The notes under the pieces were generated by a model that saw only the letters and a program-made list of their open reading frames with translations, did no database searches and was not told where the DNA came from. Shown here one piece after another: positions 32,471-52,696 of a stretch of 53,960 nt of DNA. Source of the DNA: an uncultured Anaerotruncus sp. (GTDB taxonomy: Bacteria > Bacillota > Clostridia > Oscillospirales > Ruminococcaceae); the NCBI GenBank assembly GCA_944387965.1, contig CALXGW010000128.1, forward strand, positions 1 through 53,960, written 5' to 3'. The position numbers and the translations under genes are program-made. How positions within the stretch are numbered: position 1 is the stretch's first letter; every line of letters starts with the position of its first letter.

Positions 32471-33202
32471 ATGGAGTCCATGCTGGTGCGGGAACGATAT
32501 AAGGTGGTCCGCGTGATCGACAGCCAGGAGGATTACGCCTTTGTGGAAGCGGTGGATATCCTGGACCGGGAGATGGGCGGTTGCGTGCTCAACCTGTATG
32601 AAGGGCCTTTGCTCCGCCGGTACCTGTCTTGTTTTGACCGGATGGAAGGCTGCAGCGCATATCAGGGGATGTTCCTGAATGGGGAAAGCCTGGTGGCGGT
32701 GTTCCAGGATTGCGGCGGGAAACCGATCGACCAGGTGTTCTATCAGGGGGACAGCCACAGCTGGCAGGATCGGCTGTATTATGCCGGGCAGTTTTTCCAG
32801 GAGGTGCTCAATCTGTCCGACCTGCCTGCGGATGTGGCTTGTGCGCTGCTGCTGTCCGATAATGTGCGGGTGGATCAGGTAAACCGGCAGATCTGTTTGC
32901 GGTTCCATATGGTCCCGATGGAAGGGATGAATCCCCGGGAGGTGGCTTATCTGGCATGCGACCAGGTACGTAAGATCATGCGTCCCAGGATGTCTTCCCC
33001 AAAAGAGGAACTGGATTTCCTGGATGAACTCGACCAGGGGCTTTGCGCCAATGCAGTGCAGTTCTATGCCTTGTGGCGGAACTGGGGGGAAAAGATCCAG
33101 GAAGCATATGAAGCGTTGGGGAAAAAGAATTTTGTCCGCCGCTGGTGCGGGCTGCTGGTGGGACGGATCAAAAGACGGTTCACACGCAAAAAGAGGAGGT
33201 GA
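32471..33202 (+). CDS. putative pseudokinase (Hanks-kinase-like fold without catalytic motifs)
   Basis: LVRERYKVVRVI..VEAVD N-lobe pattern; LLSDNVRVD at the catalytic-loop position; no GxGxxG, HRD or DFG; basic C-terminus. Confidence 0.5.
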   Translation: MESMLVRERYKVVRVIDSQEDYAFVEAVDILDREMGGCVLNLYEGPLLRRYLSCFDRMEGCSAYQGMFLNGESLVAVFQDCGGKPIDQVFYQGDSHSWQDRLYYAGQFFQEVLNLSDLPADVACALLLSDNVRVDQVNRQICLRFHMVPMEGMNPREVAYLACDQVRKIMRPRMSSPKEELDFLDELDQGLCANAVQFYALWRNWGEKIQEAYEALGKKNFVRRWCGLLVGRIKRRFTRKKRR

Positions 33203-33208
33203 GCAGGT

Positions 33209-35830
33209 ATGGGACAGCTGAAAAGATTTGGCGTATTCCTGCTGATTTTGGTTTTACTGGGAAGCGGGACGGCCCTTATTTTCCAGGACACATGGCAGGA
33301 ATGTATCTCGATCCTTCGGACCGGGCATGGGGAACCCGCATACCTGCTGGCTGCTTCGGATACGGAAGGACAGATCTATGTACTGGGCCGCGACGAGAAA
33401 GAGTATGTATTGATCCTGGGGGATCAAATGGGCAACCGGACCGAAAAGTGGCGCCTGACAGCGGAAGGGCTGCCGCAGGAAAGCATACCTGCGGCAATTT
33501 ATCCTGCGGCAGGGGGAGCGGTCTATCTCGGGCTATATAATACCGAGGAAGAAACCTGCCTGCAGCTTTACCGGCTGACCGAGCAGGGGAAAGAAGCGGA
33601 ACTGCTGTTGAGCGAGCCCTGCACAGGGGAGAACCTGCAGGCGCAGATGGCATCGGTCAGCCTGTCCAGCTTTTCCCAGGTGGACAGTGTGGTCACGTTT
33701 GCCCTGATGCAGGGGGATAACGCGGCCTTTTACCGGCGCACCAGCGCGGACAGCGGGCTGGAGAAGGCCGGGACTTTGAGCCAGCCGGGGCTGCGGGCTG
33801 CTTTGGCCCTGTCCGACGGGACACAGGTGCTGGCCGGTACAGATGAAATCTCCCGGTCGGACGGGAAAAGTATCCCCCTTACTGACGGGGAAGTGATCAT
33901 TGGATTGAATCAGGCTGGCACTGGCCTCTGCTTTGTAGATGGCGCCGGCCTTAACGTATTTTATGCGGACTTTGCAGATTGGCAGCCGTATCCGCTTTTG
34001 ACGCTGGAAAAAGATGCTTACAGCCTGGACCGCTGCACCGACCTGTGGATCACCCGGAATGGGGAAATCCTGCTGCTCATGGATGGGGATACCCTGCTTT
34101 TGGACCGCGGGAGCGCCGTATCGGATTTGAGCGGGATGCTTTATCCTTCGGCGCTGCAATGCGGGCTGGTTTTGGCAGGAATCGCGCTGGCTGTGCTGGT
34201 TTTGTCCGTGGGAGTGTGGTATGCGGTATGCGAACAGCACCGGTTCCGGCTTCCGCTGCTGGTGCGCTCGGGGGTCCTGGTAGCGGCGGTGGCTGCACTG
34301 GGGACCGGCGGGCTGATCTGGGGATCGGTGCGCGCTTCCAGCAGCCAGATGGCTGAACGGGAAGCCGGGTCGCTGCTGGGCGCCCTTTCCGCTCAGGCAT
34401 TGCAGCAATTTGACCTTTCCGACAGCCAGCTGCCCGGGGATCTGGGCGACAGCCTGTGCGATCTGGCGGGCGGCGCCTATCAGGACAGCGCGGTTTCGGT
34501 TTATCTGTCCGGCGGGGATGGGAAATGGACCCTGGCAGGGAGCAATACCGGGCTTCCGGCAGGGACCCGCGGGGAACTCAGCCCGAGTTTCGATGTGGCC
34601 GCAGCACAGCAGGCGCTGGCGGACGGGAGCCTATTTTGGACCTATTCCCAGGGGGATGGCGTGCGTTATGTCTTTTACCGTGCCCAGGAGGATGGGATAT
34701 TGGCGATAGATGTGGACAGCAGCCAGCTGATAAAAACCAGTTGGGAAGCCAGCCGGTGGATGGCGGAGGGGCTGACGGCGCTGGCCGTCCTGCTGGTTGC
34801 TTTGGCGCTGGCGATCCTGTGCTGGATCAGCATCGGCGTGCGCCGCGCCCTGACGGGGATGGAACAGCTGGCGGCAGGCCAACGGCAGGTGCGTGTGCGG
34901 ATCGGCGGCGGCGACGAACTGGAAAGTTTGGCCGATGATGTGAATGCTTTGTCGTCTGCATTGCAGGATGTGGAATTGCAGCAGCAGGAACTGGCCCAAT
35001 CTTACCGGCGTTTTGTACCCGAACGGGTCCTTTCACTGTTGGGCAAGACCAGTATCCTGGAAGTGGATAAACAGACCTTCGTTTCCCGCAACCTGGCGGC
35101 AATGATGCTTTGGTTCCGTTTCCCGCCGCAGGTGTATGAAAAGAGCGGCCGGGAATTGTTTGATAACCTCAACGAAATTATTGAACGCACCGCCTCAATC
35201 GTCACCCAAAAAGGCGGCGCAGTCTTCAACTTCGCCTACGACGGTTATGACGCCGTATTTGAAGGGGGCAGCGCGGCGGCGGTGAGCACAGCTGTGGCGG
35301 TGCAGCAGGAGATCATGGAGATCAACCGGGAGCGCGGCCTGGACGGACGCCCGCCGGTCGTGGTGCGTATCGCCCTGGATGAAGGAAATGTGATGCTGGG
35401 GGTGGTGGGGGATGAAAACCAGATCGAACCAACCTCCATCTCTTCGAGCTTTTCGGTGGCGAAACATCTGGTGGAATTGTGCGGACGGCTGGAAGCCAAT
35501 ATCCTGTGCACCGAGTCGGTCATCCGCAATGCCCAAAGCTATGGCAGCCGCTATATGGGCAAATGCCTGGAAGGTGGGGAGGCCATCCGGATCTATGAGA
35601 TCTTTGACGGGGATGCCTATGAGATCCGCAAGGTAAAGGAAGATACAGGCGCACGTTTTTCGGAAGGGGTTTATGCCCTGTATGGCCGGGATTTCTCGGA
35701 AGCCAAGCGTATTTTCCTAAGCTTGGTCCATCACAACACCGGGGATGGCGGGGCAAGGTATTATCTTTATCTGGCAGACCGGCTGGAAAAACGGCCGGAA
35801 GATGAGATCAGCCTGGATTCCGGGCAGTAA
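33209..35830 (+). CDS. membrane protein with extracytoplasmic domains, HAMP and a degenerate class III adenylate/guanylate cyclase domain
   Basis: Four hydrophobic segments; HAMP DELESLADDVNALS; RRFVPERVLSLLGK, GNVMLGVVG, IYEIFDGD; catalytic residues largely substituted. Confidence 0.78.
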   Translation: MGQLKRFGVFLLILVLLGSGTALIFQDTWQECISILRTGHGEPAYLLAASDTEGQIYVLGRDEKEYVLILGDQMGNRTEKWRLTAEGLPQESIPAAIYPAAGGAVYLGLYNTEEETCLQLYRLTEQGKEAELLLSEPCTGENLQAQMASVSLSSFSQVDSVVTFALMQGDNAAFYRRTSADSGLEKAGTLSQPGLRAALALSDGTQVLAGTDEISRSDGKSIPLTDGEVIIGLNQAGTGLCFVDGAGLNVFYADFADWQPYPLLTLEKDAYSLDRCTDLWITRNGEILLLMDGDTLLLDRGSAVSDLSGMLYPSALQCGLVLAGIALAVLVLSVGVWYAVCEQHRFRLPLLVRSGVLVAAVAALGTGGLIWGSVRASSSQMAEREAGSLLGALSAQALQQFDLSDSQLPGDLGDSLCDLAGGAYQDSAVSVYLSGGDGKWTLAGSNTGLPAGTRGELSPSFDVAAAQQALADGSLFWTYSQGDGVRYVFYRAQEDGILAIDVDSSQLIKTSWEASRWMAEGLTALAVLLVALALAILCWISIGVRRALTGMEQLAAGQRQVRVRIGGGDELESLADDVNALSSALQDVELQQQELAQSYRRFVPERVLSLLGKTSILEVDKQTFVSRNLAAMMLWFRFPPQVYEKSGRELFDNLNEIIERTASIVTQKGGAVFNFAYDGYDAVFEGGSAAAVSTAVAVQQEIMEINRERGLDGRPPVVVRIALDEGNVMLGVVGDENQIEPTSISSSFSVAKHLVELCGRLEANILCTESVIRNAQSYGSRYMGKCLEGGEAIRIYEIFDGDAYEIRKVKEDTGARFSEGVYALYGRDFSEAKRIFLSLVHHNTGDGGARYYLYLADRLEKRPEDEISLDSGQ

Positions 35831-39313: not shown

Positions 39314-40038
39314 TTTCCATCCATGCCAGCGCGGTCTGCCATGTGCGGGACGGTTATACCAGCCGGCCGCTGCAGGCGCAGGCCCTCTTGTGCGCCCTCG
39401 ACGGGGCCCCGGTCCGGCCGTTGGCAAAGCCGGACGGATACCTGGTGCTGCTTGACCTGTCCGACGGACCCCATCGCCTTTCGCTGCGCTGCCACGGCTA
39501 CCAGGAGGAATGGGTGGATTTTATTGCGGGCGCCGGTACGGAAGAACTGGAGATCACCATGAAACCGGGGGCAGGATACCCTTTCCGTGGGGAAGTCACC
39601 CGGCTGGAACTTGCTGTGACAGAAAAGGGCACGGCCGCTGCCGGCAGGCAGCTGTGGCTGGCAGCCCCGGGCAGATGGGAACTGAAGATTGCCCAGACGC
39701 AGGCGCCGGCAGGCGCGCAGCAATTCCGGCTGTACTGCAAGGGACCGGCAGAAAGTGTGCCGCCGGGGCCATATCTGATCCTTGACGGCGCCGACAGCGA
39801 GATCGTTTTCCTGCGGGACTTGGAGGGGGAAGAGGGAAGGCTGGCATCCCCCCTTCTTTGCAGCCATGCCCGCGGCAAGCCGCTGCTGCCTGCCCAATGC
39901 TACCATACAGGGCTGGACGGAGGTTTAACCGCCGTTTTCCAGTCGGCCTGCACCCTGCAGGTTTATGCGCCGGGAAGCGGGCTGTTGGCCAGCCTTCCGC
40001 TTGGGAGCGGGGAAAACCGGCAGACGATCCGTCTGTAA
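39310..40038 (+). CDS. hypothetical CIS protein (prealbumin/carboxypeptidase-regulatory-like N-terminus)
   Basis: VRDGYTSRPL, KPDGYLVLLDL..G..YQ, MKPGAGYPF; start overlaps the DUF4255 stop. Confidence 0.6.
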   Translation: MISIHASAVCHVRDGYTSRPLQAQALLCALDGAPVRPLAKPDGYLVLLDLSDGPHRLSLRCHGYQEEWVDFIAGAGTEELEITMKPGAGYPFRGEVTRLELAVTEKGTAAAGRQLWLAAPGRWELKIAQTQAPAGAQQFRLYCKGPAESVPPGPYLILDGADSEIVFLRDLEGEEGRLASPLLCSHARGKPLLPAQCYHTGLDGGLTAVFQSACTLQVYAPGSGLLASLPLGSGENRQTIRL

Positions 40039-40079
40039 CGGGATGCGGCAAATTGGGATGGTTACAAGGAGAAAGCGAT

Positions 40080-40466
40080 ATGGGAAAACCAGTAGTCCAA
40101 ACAACGATGTGTACTTGCTCATTTGGAGCGGCGCCAGCACCGCTGACGGTCACCAGCCAAATGACGGTAAGCATGGGCGGCCTGCCTGTAGCTACCATCC
40201 TGGATGGGGCCCCGGCGACCAACCTGTCCACCTTCGGCATGTGTTCCAGCCTGTCAAATCCGGCGGTGGCAGCGGCAACGGCAGCAGCTCTTGGGGTGCT
40301 GACCCCGGCGCCCTGTATGCCGGTCACGGTGAGCTGGATGCCGGGATGCCCGACCGTATCTGTCTGTAAACGCCCGATGCTGAACACCCAAAGCAAACTG
40401 GTTTGCGCTTATGGGGGTCAGATACAGGTCAGCGCTGCAATAGAAACACGGGTCAAGATCCCTTAA
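40080..40466 (+). CDS. DUF4280 PAAR-like spike tip
   Basis: CTCSFG, FGMCSSLSNPAVAAATAAALGVLTPAPCMP, SKLVCAYGG. Confidence 0.9.
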   Translation: MGKPVVQTTMCTCSFGAAPAPLTVTSQMTVSMGGLPVATILDGAPATNLSTFGMCSSLSNPAVAAATAAALGVLTPAPCMPVTVSWMPGCPTVSVCKRPMLNTQSKLVCAYGGQIQVSAAIETRVKIP

Positions 40467-40500
40467 AAAACCAGGGGACGGCCGGAAGGGAGGGGATGCG

Positions 40501-42588
40501 GTGGAAGAGTATGATCTGCGGGATATCTCTTATGAACGGATGGACCAGGGATATGAAACTCAGTGGGCGCTGATGGATGACCTGTTCGCCTGGCTGGACC
40601 TGCAACTTTATTTCTTCTATAAACATCATCAATGGCTGGGGCCAAAAAATGATATGCGCAATATGATGGGATTGGTGGTCAGCCGCGAGGAATTCGAGCA
40701 TAACCTGGCAAAAGCAGCCCAATTGGGCCTGTCAGCCCAACTGACCAATGGGGAAGCCGGACAGCTGGAAGCTTCCCGCAGGGCTATCCTGGCACGGCTG
40801 AAGCGCACCGAAGGGGATTTCCCGCTGCTGTTGCTTTTCAAGCGGTGCGGCTTGGACGAATTTGAAGCTGCTTGTGTCGCTTTGACATATGCCGGGGTGC
40901 TTGACCAGAAATATGAAAAGCTTTTTGCCTACCTGCAGGATGATATCACCCGGAAGGTCCCATCCACTGCCCTGGCCGTACAGCTTTTCCTGCCGCCGGG
41001 CAGTACGATGGAGGAATACCTTTCCCGTTTTGCGCGGCGGGATCGGTTTACCGGGCTGTTTGATCCGGACCGGTTGGCGGCAGGGCAATTGGTCTTCTGC
41101 CCGGTCGTGCTGGAGTTTTTGAGCACCGGCAGCATCGCGCCGCTGCCCGGGCTGCGCCTGTTCGACGGGGCGGTGGAGCGCCCTCCGGGACCGCTGGTCA
41201 TCGGCCAGGAGGCGGCCCGCCGGCTGGATTTGCTGTTCGGCGAACCGGGGGAGCAAGCGATTTGCCTGACCGGCGGGCCGGGGTCAGGCAAACGCTTCCA
41301 GGTGGAACATCTCATGGCCCGGACCGGCCAACGGTGCGTATTCCTTTCGCTCGACTGCGAGCAGCCTGCACAACGGGCCAGGGAAGGGGTGCTGGCGGCC
41401 CGGCTGACGGGGGCTTGCCTGTGCTGTACCCATATGGAGGGACGGGATGCGGAAGGCAAATGGATCCCGCCGGAGGAAAAACTGCTGCAGGGGATATTGG
41501 ATCTGGAACCTGCCCATGAAAAGATTTTTTTCCTTTCACAGCTGCCGATCCGGGCGCGTTTGGGGCGGCTGACGGTCGAATTGGAAATCCCGGATACCAC
41601 CGAAGACGAACGGATGGATCTTTTCCGGGCGTTTTTGGGGGAAATCCCGCTGGGGGATGGCCTGACCGTGGAGGAATTGGCCAGCAAATTCCGGTTTTCC
41701 CCCCGGCAGGTGGAACAGGCATGCCGGCAGGCGGCCGGCCTGGCCCGCTTGGACGGCCAGGCGCAGATCCCCAGCCGGGAGATGCACCAGTGCTGTTACC
41801 GCCAGGTGGTACATAAGCTTGGGGATTTGGCCACCCCGGTGCGGCCTGCATTCGGCTGGGATGACGTGGTGATGCCGCAGGATCAAAAACGCCTGCTGCA
41901 GCATGCATGCAGCCATATCAAGTTCCGGCACAGGGTTTACAGTGAATGGGGGTTTGACCGGAAGGTGACATATGGCCGGGGGTTATCCATCCTTTTTGCC
42001 GGCGCTCCGGGAACGGGGAAAACCATGTGTGCCCAGCTGATCGCCAACGAACTGAATATGGAGATGTATAAAATCAACATATCCCAGATCGTCAGCAAAT
42101 ATATCGGTGAAACGGAAAAAAATTTGCAGGCGGTTTTTGCAGAGGCACGGCGATCCAATTGTATCCTTTTTTTCGATGAGTGCGACGCTATTTTCGGCAA
42201 ACGCAGCGAGGTCAAGGACGCCCATGACCGCAATGCCAATGTGGAGGTCGCTTACCTGCTCCAGCAGATCGAGGAACACGACGGGGTATGTATCATGGCC
42301 ACAAACCTGATCGGCAATATTGATGCAGCCTTTATGCGCCGCATCACCTATGTGATCCATTTTCCATTCCCCGACGCCGCGATGCGCGAGGAGATCTACC
42401 GCCGGACCATCCCACGGCAGGCCCCGCTGTCAGAGGATATCGACTGGGCATTCCTGGCCGAAAAATTTGAACTTTCCGGCGGGCATATCAAAAATATCGT
42501 CCTTTCCGCCGCTTTTTTGGCCGCGTTGGAGGGCCAGCCGATCGAAATGTCCCATCTGCTGCGCGCAGCGGTCGGGGAACTGCGGTAA
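40501..42588 (+). CDS. AAA+ ATPase (Afp15-like), possibly truncated by 19 codons
   Basis: KLFAYLQDD, GGPGSGK, GAPGTGKT, SKYIGETEKNL, FFDECDAIFGKR, LSGGHIKNI. Confidence 0.93.
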   Translation: MEEYDLRDISYERMDQGYETQWALMDDLFAWLDLQLYFFYKHHQWLGPKNDMRNMMGLVVSREEFEHNLAKAAQLGLSAQLTNGEAGQLEASRRAILARLKRTEGDFPLLLLFKRCGLDEFEAACVALTYAGVLDQKYEKLFAYLQDDITRKVPSTALAVQLFLPPGSTMEEYLSRFARRDRFTGLFDPDRLAAGQLVFCPVVLEFLSTGSIAPLPGLRLFDGAVERPPGPLVIGQEAARRLDLLFGEPGEQAICLTGGPGSGKRFQVEHLMARTGQRCVFLSLDCEQPAQRAREGVLAARLTGACLCCTHMEGRDAEGKWIPPEEKLLQGILDLEPAHEKIFFLSQLPIRARLGRLTVELEIPDTTEDERMDLFRAFLGEIPLGDGLTVEELASKFRFSPRQVEQACRQAAGLARLDGQAQIPSREMHQCCYRQVVHKLGDLATPVRPAFGWDDVVMPQDQKRLLQHACSHIKFRHRVYSEWGFDRKVTYGRGLSILFAGAPGTGKTMCAQLIANELNMEMYKINISQIVSKYIGETEKNLQAVFAEARRSNCILFFDECDAIFGKRSEVKDAHDRNANVEVAYLLQQIEEHDGVCIMATNLIGNIDAAFMRRITYVIHFPFPDAAMREEIYRRTIPRQAPLSEDIDWAFLAEKFELSGGHIKNIVLSAAFLAALEGQPIEMSHLLRAAVGELR

Positions 42589-42693
42589 AATGAGATCGTA
42601 GTGGTCCAGGAGGAGCTGCGGGAATATGCAGACTTGCTGGATTAAAGAACATATATATCCGGTTTTAGATTTATCAATCAGGAGGAAACAAAG

Positions 42694-42990
42694 ATGACCA
42701 TTACAAAAAAGACAGAGGGAGCCGTTCTGACCATCGCATTGGAGGGGCGACTGGACACTTCTACCGCACCGGAACTGGAGGCGGAACTTAATGCCAGCCT
42801 GAACGGCGTTACCGATCTGACCCTGGATCTGGAGGAACTGCTGTATTTATCTTCCGCCGGCCTGCGGGTGATCCTGGCAGCCCAAAAGCGGATGAATAAG
42901 CAAGGCAAGATGACGGTGACCCATGTTTGCGACGAGATCATGGAGGTCTTTGAAATCACCGGATTTGTAGATATTTTGAATATCAAGTAA
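42694..42990 (+). CDS. STAS anti-sigma-factor antagonist (RsbV/SpoIIAA-like)
   Basis: GRLDTSTAP, YLSSAGLRVIL (phospho-Ser motif), EVFEITGF. Confidence 0.95.
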   Translation: MTITKKTEGAVLTIALEGRLDTSTAPELEAELNASLNGVTDLTLDLEELLYLSSAGLRVILAAQKRMNKQGKMTVTHVCDEIMEVFEITGFVDILNIK

Positions 42991-43008
42991 TTGAGAAGCG
43001 AGGAAATT

Positions 43009-44760
43009 ATGGAAATCAAACGATCCGAACGGGAAAATATATTCGTCCGGAAATCTTTTTACAGCTTTTTCCTTCCCAGCCTGCTTTCCTGCCTGGGCAT
43101 TGCCATTGGCGGCCTGGCAGATTGTGTGTTCGTGGGAAATACGGTCGGTGCGGTGGGAATAACGGCTATCAGTATCGGGCAGCCGGTTTACATGCTGTTC
43201 AATACTATCAGCTATTCCCTGTCGATCGGCGGATCGATCCACTATGCCAACGCCCTGAGCGAGGGCCGGGAAGCTGACGGAAACCGGATTTTTGCCAATG
43301 TCCTGCGCACCGACTTGTTTTTGAACCTGTCGCTGTGTATTTTAGGGCTGCTATTTTTACCGCAGGTACTCGCCTTCCTGGGCGCAGGCACCCCGGGGAC
43401 AGAGGTATGGGACAATTGTGAAGCGTTGGTCCGTGCCCAGCTGCTGTTGGTGCCGGTCATGTTCTGCCAGGGCCCGTTTTACTATTTTGTCAACTGCGAC
43501 AACAACCCGAAACTGGCTGCGGTCGCGCTGGTCACCAGCAATACGTTGGACATTATTTTCAATTATGTCTTTGTGGTACTCATGGACATGGGGGTCGCAG
43601 GATCGGTGTACTCCACCGGCCTGGGCGCCGCGGCAATGATCCTGATCAGCCTGACCCACTTTTTCCGCAAGAAGGGGTGCCTGCGTTTTTCCTGGCCGAA
43701 ATACCAGTTTTCCATGGTGCGGCAGTCTTTCCAGACGGGTTTTGCAACTTCGGTGCAGTACCTCTACCAGGTTTTCACCATCCTGGTAAGTAACCGGCTG
43801 CGCATGTCGATCAGCGGGGAACTGGGGGTCGCCGTGTTGGGCATCGTGTTCAATGTGGCTTTGGTGGCCGCTTCGGTATACGACGCCATCAGCATGGCTT
43901 TGCAGCCGATGGTGAGCACCTTCCATGGGGAATGCAACAAATCCAATATCCGCTGTACTTTACGCCAGGCGTTTAAGGTATCGTTGGCAGTCAGCGTCCT
44001 GCTGCTCATCCTGCTGGTCAGCATCCCGCAGTGGGTCTGCTTTGCATTCGGCCTGCGTACGGCAGAGGAAATGGCATTGGGCGTGATAGCCATCCGGATA
44101 TACGCCCTGTGTACCATCCCATCGGGGATCAATATGGTGCTGACCTATTATTATCAGGCATTGGGGAAGGAATTTACCAGCTATCTGCTGTTTACCCTGC
44201 GTTCCTTTGTATTTTTCCTGACCTTCAGCATCCTGTTCAGCCGGGGCGGGACAGATTGGTTCTGGTGGACCTATCCGGCAATGGAACTGGCTTCGCTGGC
44301 GGTGTTGTGCCTGTATAACCAGAAGAAGGGCTCCTGGACCTATCTGGATGAGGACGAAAGCAAGGTGTTCAGCGCTTTCCTGGACAGCCGGGACGCCGAC
44401 CTTGGCGCAGTCGAACAGGAGGTATCCACCTATCTGGAAGGGATCGACGCCAATCCAACTCAGACATATTTCGCGACCATTGCGGTGGAAGAGGTGTGCG
44501 GGATTATCCTGGCGCGGGCTTTCTCGGTAAATGAAGGATATATCCAGTTCACCATCGTCCCCCATGAGGACGGCACAGTGACCATCCATCTGCGGGATAA
44601 TGCCCGGGAATTCAACCCATTTGAAATGAATACCGATGAGATCAGCCTGGAGGAAGGGACCGGGTTGGATGCGATCGGGGTAAAAATGATCAAGAGCAAG
44701 GCAAAGGAATTCTTCTACCGGCGGTATGCGGGGTTCAACACACTGGTGGTCCGGGTCTGA
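43009..44760 (+). CDS. MATE family transporter fused to an RsbW-like HATPase domain
   Basis: About 12 TMs, DCVFVGNTVG, MGVAGS, QPMVSTFHG; C-terminal AVEEVC..RDNAREFNPF..GVKMIK..GFNTL. Confidence 0.85.
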   Translation: MEIKRSERENIFVRKSFYSFFLPSLLSCLGIAIGGLADCVFVGNTVGAVGITAISIGQPVYMLFNTISYSLSIGGSIHYANALSEGREADGNRIFANVLRTDLFLNLSLCILGLLFLPQVLAFLGAGTPGTEVWDNCEALVRAQLLLVPVMFCQGPFYYFVNCDNNPKLAAVALVTSNTLDIIFNYVFVVLMDMGVAGSVYSTGLGAAAMILISLTHFFRKKGCLRFSWPKYQFSMVRQSFQTGFATSVQYLYQVFTILVSNRLRMSISGELGVAVLGIVFNVALVAASVYDAISMALQPMVSTFHGECNKSNIRCTLRQAFKVSLAVSVLLLILLVSIPQWVCFAFGLRTAEEMALGVIAIRIYALCTIPSGINMVLTYYYQALGKEFTSYLLFTLRSFVFFLTFSILFSRGGTDWFWWTYPAMELASLAVLCLYNQKKGSWTYLDEDESKVFSAFLDSRDADLGAVEQEVSTYLEGIDANPTQTYFATIAVEEVCGIILARAFSVNEGYIQFTIVPHEDGTVTIHLRDNAREFNPFEMNTDEISLEEGTGLDAIGVKMIKSKAKEFFYRRYAGFNTLVVRV

Positions 44761-44790
44761 TCAAGCGTGAACGAGAGGAAGTGGGACAGT

Positions 44791-46824
44791 ATGAGAGGCA
44801 AGCTGCGTATCACTATGGGTAAAAAGATCGGGGCCATGATCGTGGCGATGGCTGTGATCCTGTGCGCGATTGCGCTGTTTGTCAGCTACCGGACGTACAA
44901 GGGACGGACCACCGAATTTTATACCCAGTTGGCGCATAACGCGGCCGCCACACTGGCCAGCCAGCTGACGCCGGAAGAACTGGACCACTACTATGAAACC
45001 CTGGAAATGGATGAGCGCTATTATGAGATCCAGGCGTTTATCAAGGATATGGTGGCGAATAATAATGTGGAGTACCTTTATGTCGTACGCCCGCATGATA
45101 TCGGCGTCACCTTCCTGTTCGATTCGGACATGGAAACCGGGGAAAATGGGGACTACACTTCCGGCGGGTACTGCGCGCTGGGCACTTATGTGGATCTGGC
45201 CGGTGAATTTGCAGAAAACCTTGACCGGCTGCTGGACGGCGAAGAGGTGGACCCGATCGTGCAGAAAGACCCCAGCTATGGGTGGCTGATGACCGCTATG
45301 GCCCCGGTGTGCTATGAAAACGGTGCGATGGCCGGCTATGTGATGGCCGATGTCAGTATGAACGACGTGGTGCAGGAGCAGCAGCATTTCCTCCTGTACA
45401 CCGGCAGCCTGCTGGCAGCGCTCACCCTGGGATTTACGCTGGTCTATCTGGTAATCATCCGCCGCAGTTTTATCCAGCCGGTCGAACAGCTCACCCAGGC
45501 CGCCCTCAAATACGAGGGAGGCGAGGGGAACAAGGTGTTCCGGCAGGTGGAGATCCGCAACAACCAGGAACTGAAATCATTGGCGGATGCGTTCCGTATG
45601 ATGCTGGTGGAGATCAATCTGAACAGTATGGAGCAGCAGGAACTTGCTGTGCGGGAACAACGGCTGGAAGGCGAACTGCAGCTGGCGCGGGCGCTGAATG
45701 TTTCATTGCTGCCCAAAGCGCTGCCGGTACATAAGGGCGGATATCCCTTTGATGTGCAGGGGTATCTGGAACAAGGGCAGGAATTGGCCTGTTGTTTCTA
45801 TGATTATTTCCTGATGGACGGGGAACGGCTGTGCGTACTGATCGGGGAGGTGCCGGGGCATGGCACTCCAGAGGTCATTTATACGGTAATGGCGCAGGCG
45901 ACCATCAAGAGCCAGATCCGTTCCGGACAGCCATTGGCGGCGGCGATGACAGCAGCCAACCAACAGCTTTATGAGGTGGGCAGCGGGCTGTCGATCCAGG
46001 TGCTGGCAGGGGTGTTGGAATGGGCGACCGGGAGTTTTTCCTATATCAACGCTGGTCTGCGGTCCCCTTTGCTCATGCGCAGCCAGGAATATTACGAATG
46101 GGGACGGGATGTTTCCTATGCGCCGCTGGGCCAGAGCGAGCATGTGCTTTACCGGGTGGAAAAACTGGAGCTGCGGCAGGGCGACAGGCTGTTGTTCCAT
46201 ACCATGGGACTGGATGAAATACAGGACCGGGATGGGGTCCCGTTTGCACAGGAACAGCTGCGGATCACGCTCAATGAAAAAAATAACCGTTTGGGCGACC
46301 TGGATATGCAGCTGCGCAGCCTGAATGCTGCGGCTGGCGCCTATGCCGGGCGGACGGCATCCATTGGGGGATATGCCCTGATGGCGCTGGAATACCGCCG
46401 GCGGGACAAAGCCCAGGCGCATTGTGCCCTCACCCCGGATGCAGCCGGAAGCACGGCATTGACGGGATTCCTGCGGGGACAGCTGGAAGCCAATGGCATC
46501 CAGGGCCGGCAGATGGCCCAGATGATGGTGTTGGGGGATGAATTGTTCATGCTGTGCCGCCGGCGTGCCCCACAGGATGGGCGGATCATGGCAGAATGTG
46601 CGATGCCGCCGGGAGAGGATCTGGCGATCCTGCGGTTCCGAGGGGATTTCGGTGGGTTAAGCCCGCTGGAACAACTGGAAGAAACGACGGCAGAACATGC
46701 GGTGGCCTTTATCAAAATGCATTGTGACAGGGTATTGTTTGAACATACAGAGTCGGTGGACAGCATAACGGTGGTCAAACGCCTGGTATTGGATACGCAG
46801 AAGGAAAGAGGGCAATTTGTATGA
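44791..46824 (+). CDS. membrane sensor-HAMP-degenerate SpoIIE/PP2C plus degenerate HATPase domain
   Basis: FYDYF..IGEVPGHG, NAGLRSP, HTMGLDE, GGYALMAL: metal-binding Asp residues replaced. Confidence 0.8.
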   Translation: MRGKLRITMGKKIGAMIVAMAVILCAIALFVSYRTYKGRTTEFYTQLAHNAAATLASQLTPEELDHYYETLEMDERYYEIQAFIKDMVANNNVEYLYVVRPHDIGVTFLFDSDMETGENGDYTSGGYCALGTYVDLAGEFAENLDRLLDGEEVDPIVQKDPSYGWLMTAMAPVCYENGAMAGYVMADVSMNDVVQEQQHFLLYTGSLLAALTLGFTLVYLVIIRRSFIQPVEQLTQAALKYEGGEGNKVFRQVEIRNNQELKSLADAFRMMLVEINLNSMEQQELAVREQRLEGELQLARALNVSLLPKALPVHKGGYPFDVQGYLEQGQELACCFYDYFLMDGERLCVLIGEVPGHGTPEVIYTVMAQATIKSQIRSGQPLAAAMTAANQQLYEVGSGLSIQVLAGVLEWATGSFSYINAGLRSPLLMRSQEYYEWGRDVSYAPLGQSEHVLYRVEKLELRQGDRLLFHTMGLDEIQDRDGVPFAQEQLRITLNEKNNRLGDLDMQLRSLNAAAGAYAGRTASIGGYALMALEYRRRDKAQAHCALTPDAAGSTALTGFLRGQLEANGIQGRQMAQMMVLGDELFMLCRRRAPQDGRIMAECAMPPGEDLAILRFRGDFGGLSPLEQLEETTAEHAVAFIKMHCDRVLFEHTESVDSITVVKRLVLDTQKERGQFV

Positions 46825-48458
46825 AACAGAGAGTGCGGTTTTCCCTGGGGAAAAAACTGACGATCCTGATCGTACTGCTCAGTATCATGTTGAGCTTGGT
46901 AGCGATCGCAGTGAGCTACTGGATCTTCAGTGCAACAATGACCGATTATTATGAACGTCTGGGTACCAACCTGGTGCGTACCCTCGCCAGCCAGCTGGAT
47001 GCAAAAGAACTGGACTACTATTATGAAACCGGGACGATGGACGAGGAGTATTACCAAACCCAGAGTTTTATCCGGGATATGGTGGACAGCAACGACGTGG
47101 AATATCTTTATGTGGTGCGTCCGCATGGGGTCGGCGTGACCTTCCTGTTCGATTCGGATATGGAGATGGGTACCGACGGCAGTTATGACGAAGGGGGATA
47201 CTGCGCACTGGGTACCTATGTGGACCTGGTAGGGGATTTCGCAGCCAACCTGGATAACCTGTTGGCCGGCAGCCCGGTGAACCCGATCATCCAGCAGGAT
47301 GAAAGCTATGGGTGGCTGATGACTGCTATGACGCCGGTGCTCCATGAAGATGGGACGATGGCAGGTTACGTCATGGCGGATATCAGCATGAATGAGGTGA
47401 TGAATACCCGGCGGACCTTCCTGATCGTGCTGGGTGCGCTGCTGACGGCCCTTACCATTGGCTTTATCGCCTTGTGCCTGGCTGTCGTGCGCCGTCAGGT
47501 GGTACGGCCGATCGACCTGCTTACCCAGGCGACCGGGGCATTCATCCAGAACAATGAGGCGGAACTGGCGGAAGGCACGGCAACTGTGAATGTGCCTGCG
47601 ATCCGCACCGGGGACGAGGTGGAACTGCTGGCCAACTCGTTCCGGCAAATGGAGGAGGATATGATCTCCTATATCCGCAGTTTTATGGAGATCACCGCAG
47701 AGAAGGAGCGCATTGGGGCGGAACTGAATGTTGCCACCCAGATCCAGGCGGATATGCTGCCCCGGATCTTCCCTGCCTTCCCGGACCGTGCGGAATTCGA
47801 TATTTATGCCACTATGGACCCGGCCAAAGAAGTGGGCGGCGACTTCTATGATTTCTTCCTGGTGGATGACGACCATCTGGCGGTGGTCATCGCCGACGTA
47901 TCGGGCAAAGGGGTACCGGCAGCCCTGTTCATGGTCATCGCCAAGACGCTGATCAAAAACCATGCCCAGAATAAGGACACCCCGGGAGAGGTATTTACCC
48001 AGACCAATGAACAGCTATGCGAAGGCAATGACGCCGGGCTGTTTGTGACCGCATGGATGGGGATATTGGAGATCAGCACCGGCAAATTCATTTATGTGAA
48101 CGCCGGCCATAACCCGCCCCTGCTCAAACATGCCGATGGGTGTTTTGAATGGCTCAAATCGCGTCCTGGATTTGTGCTGGCAGGGATGGAAGGCAGCCGT
48201 TACCGGGAAAATGTGTTGGAGTTGACGCCTGGGGATACCCTTTACCTTTACACCGACGGCGTAACCGAAGCAACCAATGCTTCCCAGGAGTTGTTTGGGG
48301 AGGACCGGCTGCTGGCAGCCTTGAATGAAGAACCAGGCCTGCCGGTCAATCAGCTGCTTCCCAAGATCAAAGGGCAGATCGACAGTTTTGTAGGCGAAGC
48401 TGAACAATTTGACGACATCACCATGTTAGGATTGTCTTACCGCAGTAAGGGGGTTTAA
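46821..48458 (+). CDS. membrane sensor-HAMP-SpoIIE/PP2C phosphatase (RsbU-like)
   Basis: EVGGDFYDFF, IADVSGKGVPAA, NAGHNPP, YTDGVTEA, DDITML. Confidence 0.95.
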   Translation: MKQRVRFSLGKKLTILIVLLSIMLSLVAIAVSYWIFSATMTDYYERLGTNLVRTLASQLDAKELDYYYETGTMDEEYYQTQSFIRDMVDSNDVEYLYVVRPHGVGVTFLFDSDMEMGTDGSYDEGGYCALGTYVDLVGDFAANLDNLLAGSPVNPIIQQDESYGWLMTAMTPVLHEDGTMAGYVMADISMNEVMNTRRTFLIVLGALLTALTIGFIALCLAVVRRQVVRPIDLLTQATGAFIQNNEAELAEGTATVNVPAIRTGDEVELLANSFRQMEEDMISYIRSFMEITAEKERIGAELNVATQIQADMLPRIFPAFPDRAEFDIYATMDPAKEVGGDFYDFFLVDDDHLAVVIADVSGKGVPAALFMVIAKTLIKNHAQNKDTPGEVFTQTNEQLCEGNDAGLFVTAWMGILEISTGKFIYVNAGHNPPLLKHADGCFEWLKSRPGFVLAGMEGSRYRENVLELTPGDTLYLYTDGVTEATNASQELFGEDRLLAALNEEPGLPVNQLLPKIKGQIDSFVGEAEQFDDITMLGLSYRSKGV

Positions 48459-48462
48459 GGAG

Positions 48463-48873
48463 ATGACAGAACGGATTTTCCCTGCGTCCCAGGATCAGCT
48501 GGAACAGGTACAGGCATTTATAGGCGAACAACTGGAAGGGTACCCCTGTTCCAGCAAGGTAAAATTCCAGCTAGATGTGGCGGTGGAGGAGATATTTGTG
48601 AATATTGCCCACTATGCCTACCGTCCGGAGCAGGAGGGGAAAGCCACCATCCGGTGCTGTGTGGGGGGGTCGCCGCTCCAGGTGACCATCCAGTTCCTGG
48701 ATAACGGAAAACCCTTTAACCCACTGGCAAAGGAGGATGCCGATACCACACTCTCCGCTGAAGCACGGCAGATCGGCGGGCTGGGTATCCTGATGGTCAA
48801 AAAGAGCATGGATGCGGTGGATTATGCCTATGAGGATGGGAAAAATATCCTGACGATCAAAAAGAGCATCTGA
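48463..48873 (+). CDS. anti-sigma factor Ser/Thr kinase (RsbW/SpoIIAB-like)
   Basis: AVEEIFVNIAHYAY, DNGKPFNP, GGLGILMVKKSMD. Confidence 0.93.
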   Translation: MTERIFPASQDQLEQVQAFIGEQLEGYPCSSKVKFQLDVAVEEIFVNIAHYAYRPEQEGKATIRCCVGGSPLQVTIQFLDNGKPFNPLAKEDADTTLSAEARQIGGLGILMVKKSMDAVDYAYEDGKNILTIKKSI

Positions 48874-48879
48874 ACCAGT

Positions 48880-49857
48880 ATGGGAGAATTGGAGCAAAAC
48901 AAGATGATCAACTTTCGGGAACCGGAAATTGCAGATAAGCAGTGGGTGGAGGCTTGTTTCCATGCCTCAGGAAACCAGGGCTGTGAATACAGCTTTGCGA
49001 CCCTGTTTTTATGGAGCAGGTCGTATCACCAACAGGTCGCCCGTATGGACGGGTATGTGCTGGAACGAATGAGCGGCGCCAGGGGCCCAGGCTACCTGTT
49101 TCCGGCAGGCAGCGGCCCGTTGGAACCGGTGCTTTCCGCTTTGGAGGCAGATGCGGAAGAACGGGGGGAAACTTGCCAATTTTTCTGCGTTACACCGGAA
49201 CAAAAATTGCTGCTGGAAGCATCCCGGCCGGGGGAATACCGGCTGGAACCCGACCGGGACGGATGGGATTATATCTATCAGGTGGAACGTCTGGCGGAAC
49301 TGAAGGGCAAAAAGCTCCAGGCCAAACGCAACCATATCAACCGTTTTTTAGAGCGGTACCCGGATTGGCAGGTGGAAGAGATCACAACAAAAAACCTGGG
49401 GGAATGCGTTGTGATGGACCTGGAATGGAACCGCCTTTACCGCACCGAAAACGGGGATGCAGAAAAGGAAGCGCGGACCCGTTTGGATGAGCGCCATGCC
49501 ATGTTTAAAGCATTTTCCACCTATGAACAGCTGGACCTGTATGGGCTGCTGCTCCGTGCGGAGGGGCGGGTATTGGCGTTTACGATGGGCAGCCTGATCA
49601 ATGAGGAAACGATCGATGTACATTTTGAGAAGGCATATGGGGAAATCCAGGGGGCTTACCCCATGATAAACCGGGAATTTGCCCGTTGGGTACGGGAGAA
49701 CCATCCGCATGTCCTTTGGCTCAACCGGGAGGACGATATGGGGCTGGAAGGGCTGCGCAGGTCGAAAAACTCTTATCATCCGGACCGGATGGTCGAAAAA
49801 TATCTGGCCGTCCGGGAAAAGGGCAGCCCAGCCCGATCAGGCAGGGATGAGGGATGA
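48880..49857 (+). CDS. DUF2156 family protein (aminoacyl-transferase/GNAT fold)
   Basis: CEYSFATLFLW, DYIY..L..LKGKKLQAKRNHINRF, VHFEKA, NREDDMGLEGLRRSK.SYHP. Confidence 0.88.
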   Translation: MGELEQNKMINFREPEIADKQWVEACFHASGNQGCEYSFATLFLWSRSYHQQVARMDGYVLERMSGARGPGYLFPAGSGPLEPVLSALEADAEERGETCQFFCVTPEQKLLLEASRPGEYRLEPDRDGWDYIYQVERLAELKGKKLQAKRNHINRFLERYPDWQVEEITTKNLGECVVMDLEWNRLYRTENGDAEKEARTRLDERHAMFKAFSTYEQLDLYGLLLRAEGRVLAFTMGSLINEETIDVHFEKAYGEIQGAYPMINREFARWVRENHPHVLWLNREDDMGLEGLRRSKNSYHPDRMVEKYLAVREKGSPARSGRDEG

Positions 49858-49885
49858 CACGGATCAGAAAGAGGGGGAAGATGCA

Positions 49886-50737
49886 ATGGGCCAGTTGAAC
49901 TTATGCACGGTCGGGCCGCAGGATACTGCTTTTTTGCAGTATATCCCAGCCTGTTTCCATCCTCTGCTGGACCAGGAGGGCACCGTCTGCGTAGGGGCGG
50001 TATACAACGGCGCATCCTGCGGGGTGGCCCTGGCGGAACGTTATACATGGGGCAAGTATTACCTGCGTTACATCTTCGTGGATCCAAAAGCCCGGTTATG
50101 CGGGTTGGGAACCTACCTGCTCAGAGGGCTGCTGGGACGCCTGCAGGGGAAAGGGGCAAAATGGGTCAAGGCGGTCTATGATCCCAGCATGCTGGAAGGA
50201 GAGCGGCAGATATTGGGAATCCTGGAACGGGCAGGGCTTTCACAGCCCGAACCGATCTCCACGAATTTCTCCACCCGATTGGGGGATATCCCGGAATTGG
50301 ATATCCCACTGCCACCGTCGATGGCGGTTTACAGCGCTGCGGACGCCCCGCCCGAGGTGCAGGAAGCATACATAGACCTGCTGGAAGGAAAAGATTTGCC
50401 CGCTTATGCTGATGTGCGGGGGATGGAGGGAGTATCCGCAGAACTTTGCAGCTTTTGCGCGGTAGAAGGGAAACTTTCCGGGATATTCCTGATCGGCCGG
50501 AAAGCAGATGGGATTTGCCTGGAAGGGCTGTATGTCCTGCCCGCATTTCGCGGAGGACGTACAGCGGTAGCGTTGATTTCCCGGAGTATCCGTGCAGGTA
50601 AAGCAATATTGCCGCCGGAAACCGAAGTATGGACGTCCGCCATCAGCCGGGAATCCTTTTCCTTATGTGACAAGTTGCTGCGGCTGGGCAGCCGGGCTAA
50701 AAAAGAAACGGAATTCAGTTGCATCTATCAATTTTGA
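49886..50737 (+). CDS. tandem GNAT-like acetyltransferase
   Basis: IFVDPKARLCGLGTYLL and LYVLPAFRGG acetyl-CoA motifs. Confidence 0.75.
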   Translation: MGQLNLCTVGPQDTAFLQYIPACFHPLLDQEGTVCVGAVYNGASCGVALAERYTWGKYYLRYIFVDPKARLCGLGTYLLRGLLGRLQGKGAKWVKAVYDPSMLEGERQILGILERAGLSQPEPISTNFSTRLGDIPELDIPLPPSMAVYSAADAPPEVQEAYIDLLEGKDLPAYADVRGMEGVSAELCSFCAVEGKLSGIFLIGRKADGICLEGLYVLPAFRGGRTAVALISRSIRAGKAILPPETEVWTSAISRESFSLCDKLLRLGSRAKKETEFSCIYQF

Positions 50738-50754
50738 AAAAGGGGGAACGACAT

Positions 50755-52455
50755 ATGCAGACCTATACAACAAAGCGCAGAACCGCGGATCGGGCGGCAC
50801 AGCCCCAGACAGGGCCGGAGATTTCTAAAAGCGATATGCTCCATATGTCCAATGCCGGCGCGCCCCAGCCAATGTCACCGGCCTTGCGGGAAAAGTTCGA
50901 ACCGGGTTTTTCCGCAGATTTTTCCAATATCCGCATCAGCCGGGGACATATCCCGGACGAGATGGGCGTCCAGGCGGTGGCCCAGGGCACCGATATCCTG
51001 TTGGACAGCCGTGCCGGGATGGATGTGCTGGGGCATGAGCTGGCCCATGTGGTACAGCAGGCACAGGGCCGGGTAGACGGCGGTTTCCCAGTGGTGGACA
51101 ACGCAGCTTTGGAGCATGAAGCCGATATCATGGGAAGCCGGGTTTCATCCGGGCTTTCGGCGCATATCGGCAGCGAAAACGGGTTTGGCGGCGAAATGAC
51201 GTCCATTGCCCCAATGTCGGGCGCCAATGCTCCGGCCCAGTGTAAAAGTTTGAAAGAAAAGGAAGAAGAAAAAGCTCAGGCAGCCCATACAGCTGCAGCA
51301 GGAAACAGCGGTGGGTTTGTATCAAGCAGGGTAAACTCTGTACCGCATGCTCTTGGCTCGGATGCACAGCTGAAAGTACAGCAGAATGCGGGCGGAGTCC
51401 CGCTGCCTGCCGCCGCCATGCAGGCATCAAAGGATGCAGGCGGGAATCAGAGTGAGATCTTCCAGGCCAGCCAGCTGCGTACAAATAAGACAGCTTCTGC
51501 AGATGCAGTAAAAACGCGGAAAGGGAGCGCTTTCGCCGGCCTGGGTGAAGACCTGAGGGACTGGGGCCTGGGCCTGCAGAAACAGGGGCTCCAGTGGGGA
51601 AAGGTTCAGGAGGACGCCGTATCTGGCCGATCCATATTTGGCGGGCAAAACTTTAGAATCAGCCCTGAGATTTCTTCTATGTCGATGAGTGTTATGGATA
51701 TTTACGATCAATATCTTCAGCGCCCTGAAATTCAGCAGTTCATGAAGGATCGCTACAGCCTGCTCACCGGCACCGATGTTTTTGATGAGGACGCAGGAAA
51801 CGGCACCGAATTGGACTATATGATGACCGATGTGATGAACCGGGATTTTGGATCGGATGCCTTCGGTATGCTGAAGGAAGGTATCACTAACAGCAGCGCG
51901 GATCCGGCTAAGGATACAACCTATTTGGGCGCCAGTGCGTTAAACAGTTTCCTGACCCGTTTGCCAAACGTCGTACGCGATCTGGACAGCGGAAATACGG
52001 ATATGTCGGTCGTACCGGCCCATATGCTGCCGGCCATTGACCGGTATAAACAGATGCGCGCAAAGATTGGACAGATGGTCGCCCCCAACAGTTATGACCC
52101 GGCCACCGGCGCCCGCGCCCAGGCCCCAGCGCCTGCGCCGGCCCCAGCTCCAGCGCCTGCGCCGGCCCCGGCTCAGAGGGTCATTTCTCCACAGGGCGGC
52201 AGACGGTATGTGACGCAGGCTGATCTGCCGCAGAGCGGTCCTGGTTGGTCCCACACCAGTTCCCAGTCTGTAGCCCCGCCTCAGCAGCGGGTCATTTCCC
52301 CACAAGGCGGCAAACGGTATGTGACGCAGGCTGACCTGCCGCAGAGCGGCCCCGGCTGGTCCCATACAAGTTCTCAGACCGTAGCCCCAGCGCCGGCCCC
52401 GGCAGCAGGACAAAAGAAAAGGAACTTTTTCTCCCGTCTTTTCCATAGATCCTGA
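50755..52455 (+). CDS. DUF4157 (eCIS core domain) cargo/effector protein
   Basis: LREKFEPGFSADFSNIRI, AVAQGTDI, LGHELAHVVQQAQGRV, LEHEAD; unknown C-terminal domain. Confidence 0.88.
   Translation: MQTYTTKRRTADRAAQPQTGPEISKSDMLHMSNAGAPQPMSPALREKFEPGFSADFSNIRISRGHIPDEMGVQAVAQGTDILLDSRAGMDVLGHELAHVVQQAQGRVDGGFPVVDNAALEHEADIMGSRVSSGLSAHIGSENGFGGEMTSIAPMSGANAPAQCKSLKEKEEEKAQAAHTAAAGNSGGFVSSRVNSVPHALGSDAQLKVQQNAGGVPLPAAAMQASKDAGGNQSEIFQASQLRTNKTASADAVKTRKGSAFAGLGEDLRDWGLGLQKQGLQWGKVQEDAVSGRSIFGGQNFRISPEISSMSMSVMDIYDQYLQRPEIQQFMKDRYSLLTGTDVFDEDAGNGTELDYMMTDVMNRDFGSDAFGMLKEGITNSSADPAKDTTYLGASALNSFLTRLPNVVRDLDSGNTDMSVVPAHMLPAIDRYKQMRAKIGQMVAPNSYDPATGARAQAPAPAPAPAPAPAPAPAQRVISPQGGRRYVTQADLPQSGPGWSHTSSQSVAPPQQRVISPQGGKRYVTQADLPQSGPGWSHTSSQTVAPAPAPAAGQKKRNFFSRLFHRS
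52118..52388 (+). repeat. (AP)n linker plus 2 x 111-bp-period repeat in the effector C-terminus
   Basis: QRVISPQGG(R/K)RYVTQADLPQSGPGWSHTSSQ(S/T)VAP at 52174 and 52285. Confidence 0.9.
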
Positions 52456-52571
52456 GCCAGGGCAGGAATGTTTACATGCAGGGGTTCTCTTTTTAAAAAT
52501 CTGTGAAAAGATGGATACTGCAAACAAAAAGCGCCTCATATGGGGCGGCACACATAAAACAGTATAAGATT

Positions 52572-52617
52572 GCTTATGAGAAACGGCGTAGCTTCGGCTA
52601 TGCCGTTTCTCATAAGC
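52572..52617. other. 21-bp hairpin with a cUUCGg tetraloop
   Basis: GCTTATGAGAAACGGCGTAGC-TTCG-GCTATGCCGTTTCTCATAAGC. Confidence 0.7.
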
Positions 52618-52696
52618 TGAACCCTTTATAGGGAAGGCATTTTGATTTGCTTTAACTGCCGGTAACTCAACCATGTGTTCTACCGGAGTATATGGC

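Follow-up and report, generated by a model that had tools for sequence, protein, structure and literature searches.

A STAS partner switch without a cognate sigma gene, and a degenerate receptor phosphatase, in a contractile injection system locus of an uncultured Anaerotruncus sp.

Genes of the locus

The stretch of DNA analysed here in full (53,960 nucleotides, hereafter the window) is contig C128 (CALXGW010000128.1) of genome bin G000, a 1.99 Mb, 92% complete assembly of an uncultured Anaerotruncus sp., and carries a complete Afp/PVC-type contractile injection system (CIS) at 15483-42588. Searches with Pfam and NCBIfam models confirmed the presence of sheath, tube, spike, baseplate, Afp15 ATPase, Afp16 and DUF4157 genes, and the absence of capsid genes. 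Between the CIS ATPase gene and the DUF4157 cargo gene lie the five genes with which this report is concerned, encoding a STAS protein, a MATE exporter with an RsbW-like tail, a degenerate receptor phosphatase of the PP2C type (the dead receptor), its live counterpart and an RsbW-like serine kinase (Table 1). A preliminary description had presented them as a partner-switching module lacking a sigma factor, and its account of the genes themselves proved sound: all five are intact plus-strand open reading frames, separated by gaps of 0, 6, −4 and 4 bp, in a tightly packed run that continues through the DUF2156 and GNAT genes up to the cargo gene.

The components expected of an Rsb/SpoII-type partner switch, namely the STAS serine, the RsbW boxes and the PP2C aspartates, were each recognised as intact, as had been claimed. 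The STAS protein, which aligns to RsbV/SpoIIAA, bears the motif YLSSAG, with Ser53 invariant in 36 of 36 aligned sequences, and the kinase aligns to Bacillus subtilis RsbW (6m36), retaining the equivalent of Glu49 together with the N, G1 and G2 boxes (N-box EEIFVN, then DNG and GGLG). The live phosphatase keeps GGDFYD, IADVSGKG, YTDGVTE and DDIT, with all of the metal-binding aspartates; in the dead receptor the corresponding motifs have changed to ACCFYD, IGEVPGHG, HTMGLDE and GGYA, because of which the metal-binding aspartates are missing and the domain is truly degenerate. There is no cognate SigB/SigF-type sigma gene in the operon, and the only sigma gene in the window is that of an extracytoplasmic function (ECF) factor at 2280-2849, some 40 kb away beside a DUF4367 gene.

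Table 1. Features of the window, with the evidence for each assignment (TM, transmembrane segment; aa, amino acids)
Position	Strand	Feature	Evidence
42694..42990	+	STAS-only anti-anti-sigma-like protein, 98 aa, phospho-acceptor Ser53 in YLSSAG	PF01740 E 2e-13; TIGR00377 over cut-off
42991..44760	+	MATE exporter with C-terminal pseudo-RsbW (Bergerat-fold) domain	PF01554; weak HATPase_c_2 (PF13581) at residues 467-587, E 0.0017
44767..46824	+	Dead receptor, 685 aa: TM, single Cache/PAS sensor, TM, HAMP, pseudo-PP2C, pseudo-RsbW	Motifs; model and fold matches
46821..48458	+	Live RsbU-like receptor phosphatase: TM, Cache, TM, HAMP, PP2C	PF07228 E 2e-48; motifs
48463..48873	+	Live RsbW-like serine kinase, 136 aa	PF13581 E 8e-23
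48880..49857	+	DUF2156 / LPG_synthase_C-type aminoacyl-transferase	PF09924 E 3e-51
49679..50737	+	Tandem-type GNAT protein, recurrent just before DUF4157 cargo genes	PF00583; synteny
50719..52455	+	eCIS_core (DUF4157) cargo-type gene	PF13699 E 2e-14
40501..42588	+	CIS AAA+ ATPase (Afp15/Pvc15-like)	PF22977 and PF00004
15483..40466	+	CIS structural operon: sheath, three tubes, LysM, hub, spike, gp25, two baseplate J, tail/fibre, MORN, Pvc16, PAAR-like	Pfam/NCBIfam
33209..35830	+	Second core CIS pseudo-receptor: four TM, HAMP, degenerate class III adenylyl cyclase domain	phmmer to PDB cyclases E 1.7e-4, catalytic motifs changed
32471..33202	+	Core CIS gene resembling the YukC/EssB pseudokinase of type VII secretion (lead only)	ESM Atlas feature score 0.90 to YukC clusters, ranks 20 and 27
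13223-13585	+	Receiver-only, Asp-less LytTR-family gene opening the CIS operon	Protein alignment; synteny
about 13158-13187	+	Sigma-A-like promoter TTGAAA-18-TAAAAT	Aligned upstream regions, by eye

The dead receptor and the live cassette across genomes

An AlphaFold model of the dead receptor built from an alignment of 57 sequences (predicted local distance difference test score, pLDDT, of 80; a single-sequence fold with a pLDDT of 36 was discarded) comprised a TM segment, one Cache/PAS sensor, a second TM segment, a HAMP domain and, after it, PP2C and RsbW folds. The sensor matched those of DctB (Z 13.1) and CitA (Z 11.7) and was sCache_3-like in the Atlas; the best match was the tandem RsbU and RsbW unit of Mycobacterium tuberculosis Rv1364c (3ke6, Z 26.2), and RssB had a Z of 20.4. 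The third RsbW-like domain proposed for the locus is real: the modelled residues 545-676 match the anti-sigma folds 8ih8 (Z 16.7), 1l0o (Z 15.2) and 6m36 (Z 14.8).

Sixty loci were found by way of the CIS ATPase, two pairs of which share a genome, and six with less than 500 bp of downstream sequence were left out. Downstream of the ATPase gene in the 54 informative loci, a dead receptor was present in 50, a half-dead form in three and neither in one (5.3 kb visible), and in 29 loci the gene for the dead or half-dead PP2C-RsbW protein stood immediately behind that of the ATPase. The metal-binding Asp motifs were lost across the CIS-linked copies, being partly kept in L072, L076 and L080. The reverse test deployed 301 genomes from the family of genome G061, not chosen for possession of a CIS, and yielded five strong orthologs (E < 1e-70) and two divergent ones, all seven beside a CIS ATPase gene; the weaker matches, inspected in part, coincide for the most part with matches to live RsbW fusions.

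In a tree whose 79 rows were thinned from 121, a single clade (SH-aLRT 100) unites the dead copies, and 55 of 55 sit in CIS loci, a count biased by the way in which the loci were found. Pairwise identity of the cytoplasmic part tracked that of the ATPase across 45 loci (Spearman rho 0.94, a value as high in none of 199 permutations), and the ratio of non-synonymous to synonymous substitution (dN/dS), estimated against two relatives at near-saturated dS, was 0.04-0.12 in all three domains. On these comparative sequence data the dead receptor is shown to be inherited with the CIS as a fixed and CIS-specific component beside which the live switch has been swapped in, and it is apparently an undescribed CIS-specific pseudo-receptor. 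A 'PP2Cdead' match in L151 was rejected as a MazE antitoxin. In the basal CIS loci L072, L076, L080, L092 and L078, a half-dead receptor is paired with a GNAT protein and with a protein of 960-1035 aa that joins an MFS transporter to an N-terminus either unknown or of GAF/Cache type.

The live cassette, taken as the genes for STAS protein, PP2C, RsbW, exporter and enzyme, behaved differently, so that the proposal of a single five-gene CIS module holds for the dead receptor, which is CIS-specific, but not for the live STAS, MATE, PP2C and RsbW genes. Among the 301 genomes the RsbW type occurs in 60, the STAS type in 57 and a sheath gene in 16. The co-occurrence with CISs that had been suggested as a check was confirmed as an enrichment, with the RsbW type in 10 of the 16 sheath genomes versus 50 of the 285 others (kin not being independent). 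Ten genomes, selected because the CIS locus fetched from them had no STAS gene, all encode a STAS protein of the same clade elsewhere, against a background of 57/301 drawn from one family only, and in four of them (L168, L172, L174 and L177) the STAS cassette is located at the opposite end of the same CIS.

Phylogenetic analysis indicated that live phosphatases entered CIS loci at least four times, including entry into a second, divergent CIS type (L096, L105); the RsbW tree, with 136 columns, poor resolution and long-branch joins, served only to bracket the number of changes at two to seven. A published survey of extracellular contractile injection systems (eCISs) provides a parallel, in that the available portion of its supplementary file 12 (PMC8213781) records SpoIIE-STAS-HATPase_c_2 triads in at least seven Paenibacillus/Cohnella operons, directly beside afp15 in the two seen whole, as well as an Oscillibacter valericigenes operon that combines two SpoIIE genes with STAS and MatE; the main text of the same survey gave no match for SpoIIE or phosphatase. 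A literature search whose coverage excluded most subscription papers found none describing a link between the cassette or the pseudo-receptor and a CIS. The association of cassette and CIS is far from chance, and the live cassette, judged from gene content, is a general one that is yet drawn to CISs.

Genes accompanying CIS-free cassettes include pairs of C39-peptidase ABC exporters with radical SAM genes (L013, L014, L017 and L018) and, in L102, L119, L122, L123, L126 and L127, a STAS-APH-phosphotransferase-RsbW triple fusion of about 520 aa. A link with NHLP-type C39 ABC exporters as the defining context of the cassette was considered and rejected, such exporters being near four free cassettes and not general.

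With respect to signal input, sensor identity between the live and dead receptors of the window is 63%, against 29% for their cytoplasmic parts, and the two receptors share a sensor in 16 of 27 loci, the present one included (60-73% identity versus about 30% for the cytoplasmic parts). A tree of the sensors placed 14 live ones together with the full set of 25 dead sensors (95/97), but this grouping carries a long-branch warning. The enzyme slot of the cassette is occupied variously by DUF2156, GNAT, methyl- or formyltransferase or GH3 proteins, or by a one-module C-A-T-R non-ribosomal peptide synthetase (NRPS) with a terminal reductase, and the exporter slot by MATE, MFS or EamA proteins. Because the Cache-PP2C receptor is paired with an exporter and a variable enzyme, the arrangement suggests that the signal may be self-made, and the DUF2156 product is a candidate for the signal-making enzyme of the present cassette. 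By gene content, the linked synthase, exporter and receptor genes reproduce a quorum-sensing layout. At L172:4855-9228, L177:2575-6855 and L169:6943-8610 a one-module NRPS or a GH3 amido-synthetase gene lies between the STAS and PP2C genes.

Candidate outputs of the switch and competing explanations

In the absence of a sigma gene, the preliminary description had offered as outputs the RsbW-like domain of the MATE exporter, the CIS itself or a distant sigma factor. The first of these is plausible, since the exporter tail retains the N-box Glu-Glu in 49 of 49 copies, with DxG in three and GxG (the G2 box) in one, at a dN/dS of 0.02-0.04. In the dead receptor, E592 is invariant in 57 of 57 and in 45 of 45 aligned copies and occupies the position equivalent to Glu49 of RsbW, the residue that, in the available text of PMC7340262, contacts Ser56 of RsbV. 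As both pseudo-RsbW domains keep the serine-contacting Glu and are without the ATP-binding boxes, they look like docking sites for the STAS protein devoid of kinase activity.

The reading tentatively preferred here, to which slightly less than an even chance is given, is that a sigma-free STAS switch signals to the two dead RsbW-like domains, on the exporter and on the CIS-fixed receptor, so that a small molecule outside the cell would control the CIS through protein contact. Following established RsbU/V/W chemistry, the live RsbW would phosphorylate the STAS protein and the ligand-bound live phosphatase would reverse that phosphorylation. The ligand would be made by the variable cassette enzyme (here DUF2156/GNAT) and exported by the MATE protein in a quorum-like loop, and the STAS protein would dock on the pseudo-RsbW domains of exporter and dead receptor. 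In the weakest step, the dead receptor might relay the signal to a part of the CIS, likeliest either the adjoining AAA+ loading ATPase, in a manner pictured after the RssB pseudophosphatase serving ClpX, or the membrane pseudo-enzyme set.

The components are those of B. subtilis RsbU-RsbV-RsbW-SigB and SpoIIE-SpoIIAA-SpoIIAB-SigF, with a PP2C phosphatase, a STAS protein with its acceptor serine and a Bergerat-fold serine kinase with a serine-contacting Glu; unlike those systems, the present one has no cognate sigma factor, receives its input through a membrane Cache sensor, possesses two extra dead RsbW domains and has an enzyme and an exporter in its operon. By analogy, the switch would work in the manner of the sigma-less BtrUVW, RbaVWY, SypA and HmpV systems, as far as these are covered by the accessible text of PMC8256260 and PMC3999984. 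Bordetella BtrU-BtrV-BtrW is likewise a partner switch acting on a protein-injection machine (type III secretion), partly after transcription and with no sigma factor shown in that text, but the machine and the phylum are different, neither pseudo-receptor nor exporter is described in the same text, and the genes considered here lie inside the CIS cluster (PMC8256260). Rhodobacter RbaV-RbaW-RbaY is a further sigma-less switch, affecting a phage-derived particle with the STAS protein as its proposed output; unlike the arrangement proposed here, it acts on expression of the gene transfer agent (GTA) genes, and membrane pseudo-RsbW outputs are not described in the portion available (PMC3999984).

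For the dead receptor itself, likeness to RssB or to Streptomyces CisA extends at most to analogy (PMC10755785 and PMC12237407, each in its accessible part). RssB, the ClpXP adaptor (3eq2/3f79; PMC10755785), also has a dead PP2C fold kept for protein contacts, and an AAA+ ATPase gene is a neighbour here, but RssB is a soluble receiver-PP2C protein, whereas the dead receptor has TM-Cache-TM-HAMP in place of the N-terminal receiver, ends in a pseudo-RsbW domain and has the ATPase only as a putative partner. Rv1364c resembles it in the tandem PP2C and RsbW arrangement (root-mean-square deviation of 15, from domain orientation), but the dead receptor is membrane-bound, both of its domains are without catalytic motifs and the STAS protein is separate. 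CisA is a CIS-encoded membrane protein needed for firing; it is bitopic, the text available mentions no signalling-derived domain (PMC12237407), and the likeness does not imply homology. The AAA ATPase Pvc15, to which the neighbouring ATPase is similar, loads cargo (PMC11495950, as far as accessible).

A number of observations weigh against the preferred reading. The Arg that B. subtilis RsbW uses on Asp23 of RsbV is absent even from the live RsbWs, and the retained Glu could be structural. Absence of linkage to CISs in most relatives, named beforehand as one half of what would refute the module, holds for the live cassette and not for the dead PP2C: 50 of the cassette's 60 carrier genomes gave no sheath match, and among 31 RsbW genomes inspected the cassette lay in a CIS in six, was ambiguous in one and had no CIS gene nearby in 24. 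A full live switch within 10 kb downstream was found in only 25 of the 54 CIS loci, genomes G005 and G006 carry CIS and cassette apart, and G071, although it encodes a dead receptor, gave no match to STAS at E 1e-18. The live and dead sensors show no relationship in 11 of 27 loci (15-24%), and no PP2C, STAS or RsbW gene was detected in 17 stretches, some of them short and some not clearly CIS, around distant Bacillota CIS-type ATPases (33-56% identity). As the genomes are related, all such counts overstate independence.

The explanation that best survives alongside the preferred one assigns the two parts separate jobs, the live cassette being a mobile passenger that gates nothing but its own MATE exporter and enzymes, and the dead receptor serving the CIS, independently of STAS, as a membrane anchor or trigger. 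The abundance of the cassette without a CIS, the many loci in which the dead receptor has no nearby STAS gene, the other membrane pseudo-enzymes of the CIS and the precedent of CisA (PMC12237407, available text) would all accord with it. It is nevertheless regarded as rather unlikely, given the STAS genes in ten of ten dead-receptor genomes noted above, the shift of the cassette to the CIS 5' end instead of its loss, the sensors common to live and dead receptors, the repeated recruitment into CIS loci, and the Paenibacillus parallel in the portion of supplementary file 12 cited above (PMC8213781).

Less probable again is sigma-less control of transcription, whereby STAS or RsbW would act on the LytTR regulators or Asp-less receiver encoded at the 5' end of the CIS, the precedent being RbaV and the Rhodobacter GTA (PMC3999984, in the part available). 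In the window, as in relatives, the first CIS gene has a sigma-A-like promoter in front of it, and in the relatives the 5' end also bears a LytTR pair, a GHKL kinase gene and, in one case, an HTH-GerE gene. With the receiver-only gene, this block flanks these CISs, two of the receivers are degenerate, and in L136, L168 and L172 the STAS gene comes immediately after one for a response regulator, as such control would lead one to expect. The LytTR block, however, has a GHKL kinase of its own and in G000 is located, with the HTH-GerE gene, away from the switch (C58:8606-12524, between housekeeping-type genes), and the conserved membrane pseudo-RsbW domains would be left unexplained.

Control by a sigma factor encoded at a distance (SigF, SigG or ECF), sequestered by RsbW and with the CIS in its regulon, had been among the suggested outputs and is now quite improbable, because the CIS 5' promoter looks to be of sigma-A type and lies beside LytTR regulators in relatives. 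RsbW is an intact kinase of anti-sigma fold, and the genome, by sequence and context reading, encodes SigA, SigK, SigE, SigG, several ECFs and a spoIIAA-spoIIAB-sigF operon, to which a sigma factor missing from the incomplete bin might be added. The recommended search for SigB-like factors nevertheless found no SigB in the 92% complete G000; SigF is paired with its own SpoIIAA/AB, and SpoIIAA, on contig C123, is the only other STAS protein of the genome. In five CIS genomes TIGR02980 gave no more than two strong matches of SigB/F/G type per genome, together with one split copy, a result that fits SigF and SigG. Of the 70 fetched loci that carry this RsbW type, only one has a sigma gene in view, at a distance of 6.8 kb (median shorter-side flank 3.9 kb), in agreement with the claim of a switch without its own sigma factor, and RsbW is often fused to membrane phosphatases or STAS-APH enzymes. 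A sigma-70 promoter and terminator scan of 39000-53960 was at chance level (12 versus 10.7 and 17 versus 16.2).

Self-protection, in which the sensor, exporter and transferases would detoxify or export a product of the cell's own CIS cargo or of a rival's CIS, as immunity genes in the cargo region, is the least probable explanation of all: MATE proteins and acetyltransferases are common detoxifiers and GNAT genes directly precede DUF4157 cargo genes in many loci, but the same cassette exists without any CIS, the NRPS and GH3 proteins of the enzyme slot are synthases, and the dead receptor tracks the conserved ATPase and not the variable cargo.

The preferred reading of a STAS switch signalling to dead RsbW-like domains can be extended into a general scheme, which is put forward as speculative and doubtful as a whole. 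Bacillota CISs would be gated post-translationally, a self-made acyl or aminoacyl molecule acting through swappable Cache-PP2C receptors and the STAS protein on a CIS-dedicated pseudo-receptor that, with the pseudo-cyclase and the EssB-like pseudokinase, would constitute a membrane platform licensing loading or firing; sensor and synthase swaps would give strain-specific control of a kin type, and the arrangement would have originated independently in Clostridia and Paenibacillaceae. On the means of CIS control, the accessible text of the eCIS survey goes no further than transcriptional regulators and 'yet unknown signals' (PMC8213781). For the triggers of CIS assembly, loading or firing in Gram-positive bacteria, the locus supplies testable parts in the form of a CIS-inherited receptor, a repeatedly recruited switch and candidate synthases, and the carriers are common gut anaerobes, several of them cultured. 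For the output puzzle of sigma-less switches in general (Btr, Rba, Syp and Hmp), dead RsbW domains on effectors are candidate STAS docking sites.

Other features of the injection system and the window

The ATPases nearest to that of the window are from Oscillospiraceae (Flavonifractor, Oscillibacter) at up to 87% identity, against a maximum of 59% in genomes of the same genus, a disparity that suggests sideways acquisition of the CIS; its relative in O. valericigenes is eCIStem operon 1300. A check for misbinning or foreign composition was not decisive, with a tetranucleotide correlation for the contig of 0.94, the eighth lowest of 57, and a module third-position GC content (GC3) resembling that of the CIS. 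The ATPase open reading frame ends early, with its stop at 42586-42588: the C-terminus shared by the 29 relatives listed extends about 19 codons further, and the frame remains open past the stop, which may be a strain mutation or an assembly error. Chicken gut metagenomes hold DNA near-identical to the window: the contigs of two runs cross the stop no more than 30 bases from their own ends, with differences not listed, and that of a third run ceases to align just ahead of it.

Several core CIS genes encode TM segments. The pseudo-cyclase is conserved across CIS loci, with weak matches in distant Bacillota CISs, and the product of the EssB-like gene gave zero matches in a Pfam search. Taken with the MORN membrane protein and the Asp-less receiver also encoded by the CIS core, the pseudo-cyclase and the EssB-like lead thus make dead signalling domains a theme of this CIS type.

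A low-complexity gene at 19457-21388 encodes a probable tape measure or cargo of 643 aa that contains an internally repeated unit of about 70 residues; in relatives the protein at this position has 900-1240 aa. In the cargo region, the true start of the GNAT gene is probably later than 49679, and in L174:252-6160, L077 and L082 the CIS is flanked by DUF4157 cargo-type genes in tandem, as many as five to an array. A retron-type reverse transcriptase gene (St85 model 205.7 bits, below the cut-off of 235) and a GH5 hydrolase gene, at 10681-11742, occupy the position of the LytTR block in relatives. Directly after the cargo gene, at 52774-53382, lies a low-GC (GC3 0.45) TetR-like gene, a 67% identical copy of which is located about 8 kb from a CIS-free cassette in genome G013.

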